Positions 3 to 5,056 of a stretch of DNA of 5,056 nucleotides are shown piece by piece. Numbering within the stretch: the first letter of the stretch is position 1; each line of letters opens with the position of its first letter. The notes under the pieces are model-generated. The model saw only the letters and a program-made list of their open reading frames with translations, was not told the origin of the DNA and searched no databases. The stretch lies in IMG/VR virus record IMGVR_UViG_2537562194_000021; one strand, given 5' to 3'. Source of the DNA: a virus (Duplodnaviria; Heunggongvirae; Uroviricota; Caudoviricetes). The position numbers and the translations under genes are program-made.

Positions 3-257
3 CCCTGGCCTTTGATTGATGGCGTCGGGCAGATTTACGGCATGTATGTCCTGACTGAAACGAATACGACCCGCTCCGAGTTTGATCGCTACGGTAAGGC
101 GAAAAAGATAGAATTTTCACTGACTCTTGAACGCTGTGATGAGGATTTGCGGGAGCGCCTGCAATCCTCATCGTTCAGTGATATGCTGTCCGGCTTCAAA
201 GATAAGGTCACATCATCCCTTAACAGCGCGGCCAGCTCCGTTAAAGGGCTGTTTTGA
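3..257 (+). CDS. C-terminal fragment of an unidentified protein, possibly a phage tail/structural protein; 5-prime end lies outside the window
   Basis: The frame is open from the window edge (codons from position 3) to TGA at 255-257; the track's start at 12 is a TTG and probably not the real start. The translation (..PLIDGVGQIYGMYVLTETNTTRSEFDRYGKAKKIEFSLTLERCDEDL..) looks like real protein and is followed by a strong hairpin terminator. The resemblance to P2 gpU-like tail proteins is from memory only and is not verified. Confidence 0.5.
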   Translation, partial: PWPLIDGVGQIYGMYVLTETNTTRSEFDRYGKAKKIEFSLTLERCDEDLRERLQSSSFSDMLSGFKDKVTSSLNSAASSVKGLF

Positions 258-264
258 TTAACGC

Positions 265-294
265 AAAACCGCTAATGGTCAGATTAGCGGTTTT
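265..294. terminator. Bidirectional intrinsic terminator shared by the convergent left gene and the invertase gene
   Basis: Perfect 12-bp inverted repeat aaaaccgctaat (265-276) / attagcggtttt (283-294) around a 6-nt loop (ggtcag). Because the arms begin with A4 and end with T4, the hairpin is followed by a U-run on either strand. The invertase stop codon (284-286) lies inside the 3-prime arm. Confidence 0.6.
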
Positions 295-883
295 CATTTT
301 CCTGAGTCTGCCTGGTTGTTTCTTCAGCCTGTATATCGCCTACAGGGTGATAACGATAAATTGTCGATATGCCGATGTCGTAAATGATCGCCAGTTGTTT
401 CCTGTCATGACCGTTTTTGATCAGCCTTGCTATTTGCTCATGCTGTTCTTTTGTCCGCTTCGGGCGACGTCCGCCTGTGCGCCCCCGTGCGCGCGCTGCC
501 GCCAGTCCGGCCAGTGTACGTTCAACAATTAATTCACGTTCCATTTCAGCTAGGGCACCCATCACGTGGAAGAAAAAACGCCCCATTGGAGAAGATGTAT
601 CTATGCTGTCGGTCAGACTGCGAAAATTAATCCCTCGCTCCCGTAGTTCTCCGACGAGAGAAATCAGATGTTTCATGCTTCGCCCAAGGCGATCCAGTTT
701 CCAGACAACCAGCGTGTCACCTTTTTGAAGCCGCTTTAAAGCGCGTTTTAATCCCGGTCGGTCTGTCTTTGTCCCGCTTAATTTATCTTCAAATATTTGT
801 TCACATCCTGCACAAACAAGAGCGTTTCGTTGCAGGTCTGTATTCTGGTCATTTGTTGATACCCTTACATAACCAATCAGCAC
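284..883 (-). CDS. Site-specific DNA invertase, serine recombinase of the Gin/Pin/Cin/Hin family (about 199 aa)
   Basis: The translation carries the family's N-terminal catalytic motif LIGYVRVSTNDQNTDLQ (catalytic Ser at residue 9, codon 857-859), the central conserved block WKLDRLGRSMKHLISLVGELRERGINFRSLTDSIDTSSPMGRFFFHVMGALAEMERELI, and a C-terminal helix-turn-helix region (RKQLAIIYDIGISTIYRY). The track begins the ORF at a TTG (899-901), but GTG at 881-883 gives the canonical M-L-I-G-Y-V-R-V-S N-terminus and is preceded by GGGAG (891-895) with a 7-nt spacer. Confidence 0.93.
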   Translation of the reverse strand: MLIGYVRVSTNDQNTDLQRNALVCAGCEQIFEDKLSGTKTDRPGLKRALKRLQKGDTLVVWKLDRLGRSMKHLISLVGELRERGINFRSLTDSIDTSSPMGRFFFHVMGALAEMERELIVERTLAGLAAARARGRTGGRRPKRTKEQHEQIARLIKNGHDRKQLAIIYDIGISTIYRYHPVGDIQAEETTRQTQENENR

Positions 884-937
884 ACTGAATCTCCCGTCCA
901 AAAGCGCAAATCATGCCATGCAGGCCGGAAACGGCCA

Positions 938-963
938 TTATCTAAAACCTCGGTTTACAGGAA
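938..963. other. Left 26-bp recombination (crossover) site for the invertase, gix/pix/cix/hix-like; predicted core dinucleotide TC at 950-951
   Basis: ttatctaaaacc-tc-ggtttacaggaa is two imperfectly palindromic 12-bp half-sites around a 2-bp core, and closely matches the gix-type sequence as I recall it. An inverted copy is at 4241-4266. It lies 55 bp from the invertase start. Confidence 0.85.
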
Positions 964-1019
964 ACGGTAAATCAGGCTTCTGGCGCATTACAGAAAAACC
1001 AGAACGGCGCAGATATTCC
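938..1019. repeat. Left arm of the 82-bp inverted repeat bounding the invertible segment
   Basis: The reverse complement of 4185-4266 matches 938-1019 with only 2 mismatches (positions 943 and 946, both in the outer half-site). Identity is perfect from 947 to 1019 and decays inward after 1019. Confidence 0.9.
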
Positions 1020-1908
1020 GGGAAAAGATACCTTCACCAAAAATATTGGGGCCTGCCGCGCATATAGCGCATGGCTGGATATTGGTGGCGATAGTCAGGT
1101 CTGGACAACCGCGCAATTTATTTCGTGGCTGGAGAGTCAGGGAGCATTTAACCATCCTTACTGGATGTGCAAAGGCTCATGGGCTTATGCAAATAATAAG
1201 GTCATTACAGATACAGGTTGCGGAAATATTTGTCTTGCAGGTGCTGTGGTGGAAGTTATTGGCACTCGCGGCGCAATGACCATACGCGTTACCACGCCGA
1301 GCACGTCCAGCGGTGGAGGAATTACTAACGCTCAATTCACTTATATTAATCATGGTGATGCTTACGCTCCTGGCTGGCGACGAGACTACAACACGAAAAA
1401 TCAACAACCTGCATTTGCTTTAGGGCAAACAGGAAGCACTGTCGGAAATGATAAAGCTGTTGGCTGGAACTGGAATAGCGGGGTCTATAACGCAAATATT
1501 GGTGGCGCATCGACATTAATCCTCCACTTCAATATGAATACGGGGAGCTGCCCTGCTGCACAGTTCCGCGTGAATTACAGAAATGGCGGAATCTTTTATC
1601 GTTCAGCGCGTGATGGTTATGGCTTTGAAGCTGACTGGTCAGAGTTTTACACCACAACCCGCAAACCCTCTGCGGGAGATGTTGGTGCATATACGCAGGC
1701 AGAATGTAACTCAAGGTTTATTACAGGTATTCGCCTTGGCGGTCTGTCATCTGTTCAGACATGGAATGGTCCCGGCTGGTCTGACAGGTCAGGTTATGTC
1801 GTTACGGGTTCAGTTAACGGAAACCGTGATGAATTAATTGATACAACTCAGGCAAGGCCAATTCAGTATTGCATTAATGGGACGTGGTATAACGCGGGGA
1901 GTATTTAA
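949..1908 (+). CDS. Silent alternative tail-fiber C-terminal (receptor-binding) cassette, Sv'-like; has no start codon and is expressed only after inversion fuses it to the constant part
   Basis: Frame 1 is open from the TAA at 943-945 to the TAA at 1906-1908. I translated 949-1164 by hand and found no stop and no ATG/GTG/TTG. The first 24 codons (949-1020, [24 protein letters not shown]) are identical to the linker of the expressed fiber. The C-terminus (..PIQYCINGTWYNAGSI) parallels the expressed fiber end (..[16 protein letters not shown]). The track's ATG at 1165 is an internal Met. Confidence 0.8.
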   Translation, partial: LGLQETVNQASGALQKNQNGADIPGKDTFTKNIGACRAYSAWLDIGGDSQVWTTAQFISWLESQGAFNHPYWMCKGSWAYANNKVITDTGCGNICLAGAVVEVIGTRGAMTIRVTTPSTSSGGGITNAQFTYINHGDAYAPGWRRDYNTKNQQPAFALGQTGSTVGNDKAVGWNWNSGVYNANIGGASTLILHFNMNTGSCPAAQFRVNYRNGGIFYRSARDGYGFEADWSEFYTTTRKPSAGDVGAYTQAECNSRFITGIRLGGLSSVQTWNGPGWSDRSGYVVTGSVNGNRDELIDTTQARPIQYCINGTWYNAGSI

Positions 1909-1910
1909 CG

Positions 1911-2444
1911 ATGATGCACTTAAAAAACATTACTGCTGGCAACCCTAAAACAAAAGAGCAATACCAGCTAACGAAACAATTTAACATCAAATGGCTTTAT
2001 TCAGAGGATGGAAAAAACTGGTATGAGGAACAAAAGAATTTCCAGCCAGACACTTTGAAAATGGTCTATGACCATAACGGCGTTATTATTTGTATTGAAA
2101 AGGATGTTTCAGCAATTAATCCGGAAGGCGCAAGCGTCGTTGAATTACCTGATATTACAGCAAATCGCCGTGCTGACATTTCGGGTAAATGGATGTTCAA
2201 AGATGGCGTAGTGGTAAAACGAACTTATACCGAGGAAGAGCAGAGGCAGCAGGCGGAAAATGAAAAGCAAAGCCTGCTACAGCTCGTCAGGGATAAAACC
2301 CAGCTATGGGACTCACAGCTACGGCTGGGCATCATTTCCGACGAGAATAAACAAAAATTAACAGAGTGGATGCTCTTTGCGCAGAAAGTCGAATCTACAG
2401 ACACTTCCAGCCTGCCAGTAACGTTTCCCGAACAACCTGAATGA
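1911..2444 (+). CDS. Tail-fiber assembly protein (Tfa/U-like chaperone) cognate to the silent cassette, currently in the silent orientation
   Basis: A 177-aa ORF starting 2 nt after the Sv' stop, with GGGGAG at 1896-1901 as a ribosome-binding site. Its first ~120 aa are roughly two-thirds identical by eye to the convergent ORF at 2473-3000 (shared MMHLKNI.., [30 protein letters not shown]), while the C-termini diverge. Confidence 0.85.
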   Translation: MMHLKNITAGNPKTKEQYQLTKQFNIKWLYSEDGKNWYEEQKNFQPDTLKMVYDHNGVIICIEKDVSAINPEGASVVELPDITANRRADISGKWMFKDGVVVKRTYTEEEQRQQAENEKQSLLQLVRDKTQLWDSQLRLGIISDENKQKLTEWMLFAQKVESTDTSSLPVTFPEQPE

Positions 2445-2447
2445 GAC

Positions 2448-2474
2448 AAGGCCCGATAGCGGGCCTTAATTTTT
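2448..2474 (+). terminator. Intrinsic terminator between the convergent assembly genes; strong in the + direction, weak in the - direction
   Basis: Hairpin aaggcccg-atag-cgggcctt (2448-2467) is followed on the + strand by aatttttatt. On the - strand the hairpin is followed by gtctcattcagg, with no U-run. Confidence 0.55.
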
Positions 2475-3000
2475 ATTCAGGCTTTTGTGGCCATTCAGGA
2501 TTTGCCGTATCCACACGGCTGACCAGAACACTGTAGCGTTCCCATGACTCCAGTCGTGCGCGTTCCTCATCCGTCGCCATATTCAGCCTGACAGCGCGCT
2601 CCAGTGGCTGAATAACGCTTTCCGCTTCGGAAAGTAACGCGGCCTTTTGTGATTCGGCCTGTTGTTGCTGCTCGTCTGCCGTATAAATCCGTTTAACTAC
2701 AGCTCCGTCCTTAAACATCCACTTACCGGAATCATCGGCCCGACGATTGGCTGTTATATCGGGGACCTCAACGACGTTAAAACCTTCAGGGTTAAGCGTG
2801 GAGGCATCTTTAGTTATGGCAACAATAATATTATGTTCATCGTAAACAATCTTTATTGTGTCTTCCTGAAAATTCTTTACCTCTTCATACCAGTTTTTTC
2901 CGTCTTCGGACCACAACCAGATAACGTCAAAATTCTTTGTTAATTCGTACTGTTTCAGTGTTTTAGCGTTACCCGCTTTAATGTTCTTTAAGTGCATCAT
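2473..3000 (-). CDS. Tail-fiber assembly protein (Tfa/U-like chaperone), expressed orientation, translationally coupled to the tail-fiber gene
   Basis: A 175-aa ORF whose ATG (2998-3000) lies 1 nt after the tail-fiber stop (3002-3004). It is a paralogue of the 1911-2444 product, with a conserved N-terminal two-thirds and a divergent C-terminus. Confidence 0.88.
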
Positions 3001-3001
3001 A

Positions 3002-5056
3002 TTAAACGCTCGCTACATTATACCAGGTGCCATTTATATACTTTTGAACTGGTCTGTAATAAACGCCAGCTATATTATCGGCAGAATTTGACCCTGTATC
3101 CTGAACATTTATACCAGACAATACATGACCTGAAGGGCACTGGAAGTTCCATGTTTGCCAGTTGTTCACACCATAATATTGCTGTGAACCAAGCCGAACA
3201 TCTTTCACATATCGGGAATCAATGTTACCCCAGTTGCTTGGTTGTATCTGACCGTTTACAGCAAATGTCACCGAGTTATCTGTATTTCGCTGACTATAGA
3301 AATGCCAGCCTGAATCATCACCAAGCTCTGCAACAGTTGGTCTTGACGAATTTCCCCACAAGTTAAATGATGCATTACGGGCAGCGGTATTTGCACTTGA
3401 AAGTGTGAATAACTTACTTTCCCCAGCCTGAATACCCTTTAATGATATTGCTGAACCATTTCTAAAGCGGAATACATGCACACCATTAGCATAAGCATCC
3501 AGCACCCCATCACCATTTTGTTTAAACCCGGTATCGTTATCTCCTAAAACTATTGAATTGCTACCCAGGGCATTAGCCGTTCCAATCCCCAGATTTCCGC
3601 TAAAAATGGCATTAATACCGAATATTGAGTGAGAACAATAAAACCCTCGCCCATTGTTAAAATCAAGAATAGCTTGTGCGTTCGTGCTTTCTGTCGCGGG
3701 ATTAGTTGCTCCCCACTTATATGTTGTTTGACCGACGGTATAATCCTGAGTTGGAACAATAACCGTTAGCCCTTCTTCAGCAGAAACCCGCACAGGAAAA
3801 GCCCTGCCTTCAACGTAAAAAACGCTGCATACATCATCTTCTTTAAGGCTTGTTACAATGGAATGGATTGCGCGCTCATTAGTCTGATACGTCGAAAAAT
3901 AACCTGCCGCATATGAACCACGATCAGTCCAGCCACCAGGCATTACCATTCCATTGAATTCGCAGTTATTCATTTCGTAATTACCACCGGCAGATGTGGT
4001 CGTTATAATCACTCTGGAAGCCAGCTCGCCAGTGCTGCCTGTGGAACGCCGGAAAATAACTGGATACCACTTTCCACCAACTGCATTAGACGGCGCATTA
4101 AATGCGTACTGCTGCATTCCTTTTTTCTTATCCACCTCGCCTTTGCTGTAAACATTAATGTTACTCAGGAAGCGATCCTTATCAGGAATATCTGCGCCGT
4201 TCTGGTTTTTCTGTAATGCGCCAGAAGCCTGATTTACCGTTTCCTGTAAACCGAGGTATTCGATAACGGCGGCAACGGTCGATTTCGCAAGAATATCCCG
4301 CCCTACTTTTGTCAGAGTTGCCAGGCTGGCGACATCATTCCCCGTAAAATACGGAAACCTGTCTGCCGCAGTAGCAAGCCCGGCCAGCGCCGTCAGGGTG
4401 GCATCTTTCGGTTGCTTACCCGCAAGCGCGTTAGTCATGGTGGTCGCAAAATTCGGGTCGTTGCCCAGCGCCGCCGCCAGCTCGTTCAGCGTGTTCAGTG
4501 CGTCAGGTGAAGAGTCTACAAGTGCGGCAATCGCGGCCATAACGAAAGCCGTGCTTGCGATTTGGGTATTATTCGTTCCCTGTTGTGCAGTTGGTGTTGT
4601 TGGCGTTCCGGTCAGTGCCGGGCTGTTTAATGGGGCTTTCTTGTTCGTTTCATCCATTACCGCCTTAACCGCTTTTGGTGTCGCTGCCAGCGTTTCAGAC
4701 GTGCTGTTGGTTGCACTGCTGAGCTGGACTATCCCTTTTCGTGCCGTCGTGGCGTCCTGAGCGGTATATTTTCCGTTAGCCAGGTCATACGCGGCCTTAA
4801 CCGCTTTCGGCGTTGCGGCCAGCGTTTCAGAATCGCTGTTAGTGGCGCTACTGAGTTGAACAAAGCCTTTTGCGGTCAGCGAGGCATCCGGGTGACGTCG
4901 TGACTGTTCATGCTCTTTCAGTTTGTCATCCACGTAATCCACTGTGGCCATCACCATGGTGTTATCCACGGTAAGCGCCACGCTGGCAGTGCTGGATACG
5001 GTTAGAATGGTGCGAAATGTTTGTGCACGTCCGGACCCCTCGGCAACGGTTGGCTT
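3002..5056 (-). CDS. Tail fiber protein (P2 H / Mu S / P1 S-like): constant N-terminal part plus the currently expressed variable C-terminal part; 5-prime end lies beyond the window
   Basis: The - strand frame is open from the window edge (5056) to TAA at 3002-3004; the track's start at 4981 is an internal GTG. The N-terminal region has the tandem [24 protein letters not shown] motifs and the [37 protein letters not shown] block that I recall from P2 H-type fibers. The crossover site lies inside the gene at 4241-4266, at ..[11 protein letters not shown]... Confidence 0.92.
4185..4266. repeat. Right arm of the 82-bp inverted repeat, lying inside the tail-fiber coding sequence
   Basis: It is the reverse complement of 938-1019 with 2 mismatches in the outer half-site. 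It encodes the 24-aa linker [24 protein letters not shown] of the expressed fiber. Confidence 0.9.
4241..4266. other. Right 26-bp recombination (crossover) site, inverted relative to the left site; predicted core at 4253-4254
   Basis: The reverse complement of 4241-4266 is ttatcgaatacc-tc-ggtttacaggaa. The inner half-site is identical to the left site and the outer half-site differs at 2 positions. Confidence 0.85.
4664..4867 (-). repeat. Intragenic tandem repeat encoding two copies of a 24-aa motif in the tail-fiber constant region
   Basis: Unit 1 (4796-4867) encodes [24 protein letters not shown] and unit 2 (4664-4735) encodes [24 protein letters not shown]. The period is 132 bp and nucleotide identity is roughly three-quarters by eye. 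Confidence 0.7.

Follow-up and report, generated by a model that had tools for sequence, protein, structure and literature searches.

A Mu G-segment-type tail-fibre inversion switch in the P88-like prophage of Escherichia coli O111 strain 95NR1

The 5,056 nt stretch of DNA analysed here, referred to as the window, is 100% identical in nucleotide comparison to part of the chromosome of E. coli O111 strain 95NR1, where it lies within a complete P2-family prophage of the P88-like type (Xuanwuvirus). At its left edge is the 3' end of a gpU-like tail gene (12..257, plus strand), which matches Pfam Phage_P2_GpU (1.7e-10) and phrog_76 (tail protein) and is annotated in RefSeq as 'phage tail protein'. 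This gene is a convergent neighbour and lies outside the switch. The gap between it and the invertase gene holds a terminator-like hairpin with a 12 bp stem (265..294), overlapping the invertase stop codon. Folding of this sequence on the two strands gives z = -3.0 and -4.3, and it is likely to be a bidirectional terminator. An Rfam scan of the whole window returned no matches. RefSeq regards the gpD-like gene of the prophage as short, but the idea that the prophage is defective was rejected, as the ORF of that gene is uninterrupted and collinear with gene D of P88. Likewise, a secondary invertase-mediated inversion was rejected as the source of the reversed FI-U tail block, which has the same order in P88 and no extra sites.

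The invertase gene (284..883, minus strand) encodes a protein of 199 aa with a serine recombinase catalytic domain and a C-terminal HTH, with matches in Pfam, PDB and phrog. In its longest form the ORF extends to a TTG at 901, yet the gene really begins with the GTG at 883, which has a GGGAG Shine-Dalgarno motif upstream; this upholds the limits given in an earlier, sequence-only reading of the window. That reading expected a Resolvase N-terminal domain and an HTH, and the Pfam search gives both (Resolvase, PF00239, 1.3e-50; HTH_7, PF02796, 4.3e-12). The protein matches the Mu Gin structures 4M6F (E = 6e-101) and 3UJ3 (E = 3e-100) and the phrog_125 DNA invertase family (2e-96), and its HTH matches the Hin DNA-binding domain 1HCR (4e-11). 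The catalytic serine nucleophile is present as Ser9, within MLIGYVRVS. Residues 1-118 are identical to Gin at 117 of 118 positions and to the P88 protein at all 118, while residues 119-185 share 37 of 67 positions with Gin and 60 of 67 with P88. The DNA-binding domain is thus only 55% identical to that of Gin and is closer to that of Hin. Residues Q150, R153 and L154 match Hin Q151, R154 and L155, which are uniquely conserved among Fis-dependent invertases (PMC3798978). The size of the protein (within about 190-200 aa), the N-terminal catalytic domain, Ser9 and the HTH with Fis-contact residues are the traits of the Gin/Hin/Cin/Pin class. These similarities identify the 284-883 product as a serine recombinase of the Gin/Hin subclass, and its DNA-binding domain is assumed to recognise the two 26 bp sites described below.

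A Fis-dependent recombinational enhancer is presumed to lie near the 5' end of the invertase gene (700..883), a placement suggested by the near-identity of this region to Mu gin, where the enhancer occupies the corresponding stretch. About 360 nt at the 5' end are nearly identical to Mu gin. In an alignment of the window, Mu gin and P88, columns 101-199 (about 772-870 of the window) are invariant, synonymous positions included. A Fis-consensus scan found 8 matches where 9.4 were expected, and the candidates at 799-813 and 836-850 are no better than chance.

Two gix-type crossover sites of 26 bp are present, the left at 938..963 on the plus strand (TTATCTAAAACCTCGGTTTACAGGAA) and the right at 4241..4266 on the minus strand (TTATCGAATACCTCGGTTTACAGGAA). 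They are the inverted pair that had been proposed, and they share an identical central dinucleotide, TC, at 950-951 and 4253-4254. The two sites match the Mu site at 25 and 24 of 26 positions, and in alignment the left one falls on the Mu site at the centre of which AF083977 marks the 'G-segment boundary'. They sit, as in Mu, exactly at the outer edge of a longer inverted repeat, the left arm of which (repeat I2, 934..1035) codes for the residues that Sv' shares at its beginning and pairs with the right arm (4169..4270). The arms are 102 nt long and 91% complementary, with a core of 73 nt (947-1019) that is perfectly identical.

The number of sites bears on whether the locus is a two-state switch or a multi-site, shufflon-like system with more than two fibre variants, of the kind represented by Min of p15B or by the three-repeat P2-like locus of EPEC. 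Such versions do occur in related P2-like prophages (PMC4272514). The window and the surrounding 45 kb of prophage, in which 0 occurrences are expected by chance, were searched for the full 26-mer, allowing up to 3 mismatches. The 26-mer occurs there only twice, in inverted orientation, and no further site was found. A half-site search allowing 2 mismatches gave three matches, all isolated and without a partner half-site. A multi-site system is therefore rejected as barely credible at this locus. The Rci shufflon of R64 is rejected on the same count of sites and by the type of recombinase, which is a serine enzyme here and a tyrosine enzyme in R64.

The two-site switch encloses an invertible segment of 3,303 bp (951-4253), in which two pairs of genes, Sv' with U' on the plus strand and U with Sv on the minus strand, are arranged tail to tail. 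This is the mirror-image layout of fibre and tfa genes noticed beforehand, and both chaperones match Caudo_TAP at about 1e-36. The Sv' cassette (951..1908, plus strand; 318 codons) lacks its own start codon at the junction and is silent in this orientation. It is near-identical across 318 aa to the Mu tail fibre S' (PDB 8JU3, E = 1.2e-219). It is followed by U' (1911..2444, plus strand), a tail-fibre assembly chaperone of 177 aa for Sv' (Caudo_TAP 2.7e-36) that is 97% identical to Mu U'. A GC-rich hairpin (2448..2467; z = -6.7 and -5.4 on the two strands), likely to be a terminator, separates the convergent chaperone genes at the middle of the segment. In RefSeq the silent cassette is wrongly given as a protein in its own right, named 'tail fiber protein' or 'hypothetical protein'.

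U (2473..3000, minus strand; 175 aa; Caudo_TAP 9.8e-37) is the assembly chaperone for Sv and the one expressed in the orientation of the window. It is 94% identical to Mu U and 56% identical to U'. The Sv cassette (3002..4253, minus strand) has 416 codons and a stop, and is now fused in frame to the constant region of the fibre gene. The C-terminal half of Sv is about 62% identical to the C-terminus of P2 gpH; its N-terminal half is related to fibres of the siphophages HdSG1 and JenK1 and of some P1 variants, and the match to the Mu S structure 5YVQ is distant (4.8e-16). Sv, a receptor-binding part, is on these relationships a mosaic whose tip resembles P2 gpH. Counted from the crossover, Sv and Sv' are 416 and 318 aa long; beyond the repeat they are 388 and 290 aa, close to the 390 and 295 residues first estimated. 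They resemble each other only over the first 25 or so repeat-encoded residues and, weakly (36%), over the last 75 or so, which bears out the view that the variable regions are mostly unrelated.

The constant part of the fibre gene (Sc, 4254..5056, minus strand) runs off the window and contains Phage_fiber_2 repeats (8.4e-42), as well as a direct repeat (4662-4757 and 4794-4889). It enters the segment from the right, as had been claimed, and is in frame with Sv. The full fibre in the orientation of the window is 798 aa long (RefSeq CDS at L001 23002-25398).

Flipping 951-4253 in silico joins the constant region to Sv' in frame, giving a fibre of 700 aa in place of 798 aa. When the flipped window is compared with the same locus of strain 95JB1, there are 0 mismatches in 5,056 nt, and the flanks are also identical. 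The RefSeq CDS in 95JB1 is the 700 aa fibre that the flip predicts, in agreement with the earlier proposal that inversion exchanges the C-terminus of the fibre together with its chaperone. Strains 95JB1 and 95NR1 come from the same 1995 outbreak. The clonal O145 pair RM9872 and RM9467-C1 shows the same base-perfect difference in orientation. Among related genomes with coverage of 80% or more, 35 have the orientation of the window and 33 the flipped one, therefore the switch inverts in nature. The inverted orientation, which the sequence-only reading had said should exist, is thus found in the 95JB1 assembly, in the O145 pair and in about half of the relatives. The genome paper on 95NR1 and 95JB1 makes no mention of inversion at this locus.

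Inverted repeats may confuse assemblers, and an assembly reports a single consensus orientation. On this basis the orientation differences could be seen as assembly artefacts, with the segment fixed in each strain, but this is highly unlikely. Strains 95NR1 and 95JB1 were sequenced by SMRT (PMC6602927), and the 102 bp repeats are far shorter than their PacBio reads. The flip is base-perfect with its junction at the gix sites, and the pattern repeats in independent projects, both in the O145 RM strains and in the 35:33 split. A majority call from a mixed population would itself be evidence for inversion.

The agent of this natural inversion is a separate matter. Because of the identity of the repeat core, both clonal pairs allow a crossover anywhere in 947-1020, a stretch of 74 positions that contains the site centre (950/951). 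Exchange by the invertase at the 2 bp core and homologous recombination are therefore inseparable by sequence. The segment might accordingly be flipped by RecA-dependent recombination between the 102 bp repeats, with the invertase incidental or inactive, and the compatible interval fits this in spanning the whole identical core rather than the 2 bp centre alone. Against this, the invertase has an intact ORF and a catalytic domain that differs from that of the active Mu Gin at a single position, and the placement of the 26 bp sites at the outer edge of the repeats is that of Mu. The two independent clonal pairs and the 35:33 split indicate frequent switching, at a rate that would not easily be reached by RecA acting on a 73 bp repeat. 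RecA as the sole agent is improbable, if somewhat less so than an assembly artefact, and catalysis by the 284-883 invertase is favoured.

Each switch element that the sequence-only reading described as present and apparently intact was found at its expected position, and nothing contradicts the switch model. The inversion switch is real and intact, and is of an ordinary textbook type that was already known. Its identity as an intact Mu G-segment-type host-range switch carried by the P88-like prophage of 95NR1 is held with high confidence.

By analogy with Gin and Hin, dimers of the Gin-like invertase (284-883) would bind 938-963 and 4241-4266 and come together in a synaptic complex, in which host Fis would presumably occupy an enhancer near the 5' end of the invertase gene. 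Both sites would then be cut at the central TC/GA, one half turned through 180 degrees and the ends religated, leaving the 3,303 bp segment (951-4253) inverted. The promoter, the start codon and the first 382 codons of the fibre gene lie outside the segment, to its right, and only the cassette facing right is predicted to be expressed. The orientation of the window would then yield the Sc+Sv fibre (798 aa) with chaperone U, and the inverted orientation the Sc+Sv' fibre (700 aa) with chaperone U'. Each virion produced by a population of lysogens would bear one of two tips for receptor binding, either the P2 gpH-like mosaic or essentially Mu S'. Since Sv' is nearly identical to Mu S' and the tip of Sv is P2 gpH-like, the two orientations are predicted to give virions with different host ranges.

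It is an even question whether the switch is a recent chimera, in which a Mu-derived block of 2.56 kb (504-3064) was grafted into a P2-family prophage. On equally balanced grounds, this block would comprise the catalytic half of the invertase with the presumed enhancer, the left gix site, S', U' and U. Its breakpoints, with the same evenly weighted uncertainty, would fall near codon 119 of the invertase gene and at the U/Sv boundary. If so, 'half a switch' moves as a unit between unrelated phage families, and a P2-like phage borne by STEC gains the Mu G(-) host range, which covers non-K-12 enterics. Gene flow from outbreak strains could then extend to other genera. With or without recent grafting, the locus combines a catalytic half like that of Gin and a DNA-binding half of the P88 type, and pairs Mu S' with a P2 H-like tip, illustrating how fibre modules are known to be exchanged horizontally among Mu, P1 and P2 phages. 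It is a clean, apparently functional case of a classic phage bet-hedging device and matters mainly for correct annotation. In comparisons of outbreak genomes, orientation differences such as that between 95NR1 and 95JB1 should not be counted as phylogenetically informative rearrangements.

The assignment made at the outset to a known class, that of the Mu G, P1 C and e14 P segments, holds, and close counterparts are found in Mu and P88. The Mu G segment with Gin has the same arrangement, in which Sc leads into [Sv U / U' Sv'] and the invertase gene, pointing the same way, comes next. The window shares 93-95% DNA identity with Mu and D108 over 504-3064, and its Sv', U' and U proteins are 94-98% identical to Mu S', U' and U. 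The element carrying the switch, however, is a P2-family prophage and not a transposable phage of the Mu type; it has a constant region (Sc) and an Sv cassette other than those of Mu, and lacks com/mom genes downstream. The inverted repeats, at 102 bp, are longer than those of Mu, which are 34 bp, and much shorter than those of P1, which are roughly 0.6 kb. The cassettes are homologous to those of the P1 and P7 C segments (88-93% identity over 980-3056). P1/P7 Cin and Pin of the e14 P segment also share the principle of a serine invertase with a crossover inside the fibre ORF; the P1/P7 C and e14 P segments differ from the window in the constant fibre region and in where the invertase gene lies with respect to the segment.

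The same prophage type is represented by Escherichia phage P88 (Xuanwuvirus, Peduoviridae) and its relatives P884B11 and Citrobacter phage phiSM. These have the same order of gpU-like gene, invertase, Sv', U', U and fibre, with 94% DNA identity across 77% of the window, and the P88 recombinase is annotated in GenBank as 'DNA invertase'. P88 differs in part of the Sv cassette and in the C-terminal tail of the invertase. In P2-like prophages of EPEC E2348/69, sequencing and PCR have demonstrated tail-fibre inversion, and cultures contained the two orientations side by side (Goldberg et al. 2014, PMC4272514). By their published description, these loci resemble the window in that an adjacent invertase inverts a tail-fibre segment of a P2-like E. 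coli prophage (PMC4272514). One EPEC locus differs in having three repeats and four variants, against the two sites and two variants of the window.

The DNA invertase ORF lies at 284-883 on the minus strand. Its start codon is GTG, preceded by a GGGAG motif, and the 199 aa product contains both a Resolvase (1.3e-50) and an HTH_7 (4.3e-12) domain of Pfam. A 102 nt inverted repeat, 91% complementary, brackets the segment (934-1035 and 4169-4270), the arms being perfectly identical over a core at 947-1019. At the outer edge of each repeat arm is a 26 bp crossover site, TTATCTAAAACCTCGGTTTACAGGAA on the plus strand at 938-963 and TTATCGAATACCTCGGTTTACAGGAA on the minus strand at 4241-4266. The left site aligns to the Mu site TTATCCAAAACCTCGGTTTACAGGAA, of which the central dinucleotide is the annotated G-segment boundary in AF083977. 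Every element of the intact Gin/Cin/Pin-type tail-fibre switch proposed in the sequence-only reading is located where it had been placed. No match to the 26 bp site other than these two (up to 3 mismatches) was found in the window and 45 kb of prophage, with 0 expected by chance. A multi-site shufflon is ruled out by this count.

Between the sites are the Sv' cassette (951-1908) and its chaperone U' (1911-2444) on the plus strand, and the chaperone U (2473-3000) and the Sv cassette (3002-4253) on the minus strand. Both chaperones match Caudo_TAP at about 1e-36 and are 56% identical to one another. The fibre gene enters the segment from the right, as had been read from the sequence; its constant part, Sc, has Phage_fiber_2 repeats and extends past the window, the RefSeq CDS in 95NR1 being 798 aa. 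Two of these repeat units form a 96 nt direct repeat (4662-4757 and 4794-4889; 75% identical, 132 nt spacing). Sv and Sv' are mostly unrelated, having in common only the first 25 or so residues, encoded by the repeat, and a weakly similar (36%) stretch of the last 75 or so. Their unique parts are 388 aa in Sv and 290 aa in Sv', in line with the sizes first estimated. Two strong hairpins are plausible bidirectional terminators, one (2448-2467) separating the chaperone genes and the other (265-294) separating the invertase from a convergent gpU-like gene. The promoterless silent cassette is listed in RefSeq as an independent gene (window 1249-1908; 2087-3202 in L004, the 95JB1 counterpart of the prophage region), named 'tail fiber protein' in 95NR1 and 'hypothetical protein' in 95JB1. 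This stand-alone gene call is an artefact that arises from annotating an invertible locus.

The window matches the reverse strand of the E. coli 95NR1 chromosome at NZ_CP021339.1 2857911-2862966 with 100% identity. Inversion was assessed by flipping 951-4253 in silico and using the resulting sequence as a query against complete E. coli genomes. After the flip the constant region is in frame with Sv' and reaches a stop 586 residues from the window edge, predicting a 700 aa fibre. The flipped window was found in one piece in 95JB1, the other sequenced isolate of the same outbreak, where it lies at the corresponding place in the chromosome and is 100.0% identical across the full 5,056 nt. Base by base, there are 0 mismatches between the flipped window and 95JB1, versus 2,261 for the unflipped window; the 1 kb flanks are identical, and the predicted 700 aa fibre is annotated in 95JB1 in RefSeq. 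Likewise, among O145 cattle isolates RM9872 has the orientation of the window and RM9467-C1 the flipped one. Across related loci with at least 80% query coverage, the orientation of the window is present in 35 genomes and the flipped orientation in 33. The frame is conserved across the inversion, and the inverted orientation, whose absence would have counted against the sequence-only reading, occurs in nature. It is unlikely that these differences are assembly artefacts: the repeats are just 102 bp, the assemblies are long-read and the pattern is seen again in independent projects.

The E. coli genomes KSC9, WS1933D and MSI001 each have two related copies of the locus in opposite orientations, and therefore two invertases and four compatible sites in one cell. 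With such a set, invertases might act in trans or larger rearrangements might arise.

The crossover maps no more finely than to 947-1020, the identical core, with the site centre (950/951) inside it. Taken alone, the sequence is compatible with crossover anywhere in this core, as would be generated if RecA-mediated exchange within the 73 identical bp flipped the segment. Such exchange is unlikely, however, because the enzyme is intact and Gin-like, the crossover sites are canonical and switching is evidently frequent.

Site-specific inversion by the invertase is the favoured explanation. The 284-883 product is a serine recombinase, as first proposed, matching the Mu Gin crystal structures 4M6F (6e-101) and 3UJ3 (3e-100). 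Residues 1-118 are identical to Gin at 117 of 118 positions, whereas residues 119-185 share 37 of 67 with Gin and 60 of 67 with the invertase of phage P88. Judged by these identities, the invertase is a mosaic of a Gin-like catalytic domain and, from about codon 119, a P88-type DNA-binding domain, the latter sharing 55% identity with Gin and resembling Hin more. The breakpoint is near 504-530; high DNA identity to Mu and D108 begins at about 504 and runs to 3064, ending at the U/Sv boundary. The nucleophile Ser9 is present, and Q150/R153/L154 in the DNA-binding domain are the counterparts of Hin Q151/R154/L155, which are uniquely conserved among Fis/enhancer-dependent invertases (PMC3798978). 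Over its first 360 nt or so the invertase gene hardly differs from Mu gin, and a 99-column stretch there is invariant across the window, Mu and P88. In gin the Fis-dependent enhancer lies in this 5' part, which is presumably its position in the window too. A Fis-consensus scan for the enhancer was uninformative.

In Gin and Hin, site-bound invertase dimers synapse with the Fis-bound enhancer, cut the central dinucleotide, rotate and religate (PMC3798978). By homology, dimers on both sites would synapse with a Fis-bound enhancer, and cleavage at the central dinucleotide, rotation and religation would invert the 3,303 bp. Since the fibre gene has its promoter, its start codon and its 382 N-terminal codons outside the segment, orientation would set which pair is expressed, Sc-Sv with U in one and Sc-Sv' with U' in the other. 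From this analogy we infer catalysis by the 284-883 invertase, a requirement for Fis and a phenotypic consequence.

Across all 318 residues Sv' is almost the same as Mu S' (PDB 8JU3, E = 1.2e-219); U' shares 97% and U 94% identity with its Mu namesake. Sv differs, with only a distant match to Mu S. In its C-terminal half it shares about 62% identity with the P2 gpH C-terminus, and in its N-terminal half it is similar to fibres of siphophages HdSG1/JenK1 and of some P1 variants.

Strain 95NR1 is an O111:H- STEC isolated in the 1995 Adelaide HUS outbreak (PMC6602927). The prophage around the window looks to be a complete member of the P2 family. Its nearest named relative is P88 (Peduoviridae, Xuanwuvirus), which is 94% identical over 77% of the window and matches in local gene order. 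In L001, the larger 95NR1 prophage region, the gpD-like tail gene (13405-14646) has been given a shortened CDS (801 nt, 'VgrG/Pvc8 family'), with a pseudo-fragment alongside. The reading frame actually stays open through 413 codons and is collinear with gene D of P88, therefore the tail module looks intact. Adjoining it at the prophage end (12771-13362) are a Hok/Gef family toxin gene, also present in P88, and an ogr/Delta-like zinc-finger gene. The sheath-tube-E-T-U block (14672-20257) is on the strand opposite to the V-W-J-I-H block (23002-28844), whereas the P2 tail blocks are colinear. P88 is arranged alike, so this is a feature of the phage group rather than a local rearrangement. About 12-15 kb past the right end of the window, as cargo between portal and replication genes, an S8 peptidase and AAA ATPase gene pair (37102-40472) matches the IetS/IetA anti-phage defence system (PADLOC: IetA 1e-77, IetS 1e-51).

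What is new relative to the literature searched is minor: the orientation difference between the outbreak isolates, of which the genome paper of these isolates makes no mention, and the particular cassette pairing, which was not found in that literature. The system is otherwise already known. It belongs to the Mu G / P1 C / e14 P class, and RefSeq already holds the exact window sequence annotated with recombinase, fibre and chaperone. Sequencing and PCR have shown that tail-fibre segments invert in P2-like E. coli prophages (PMC4272514), and P88 is organised in the same way, its recombinase being annotated as a DNA invertase.
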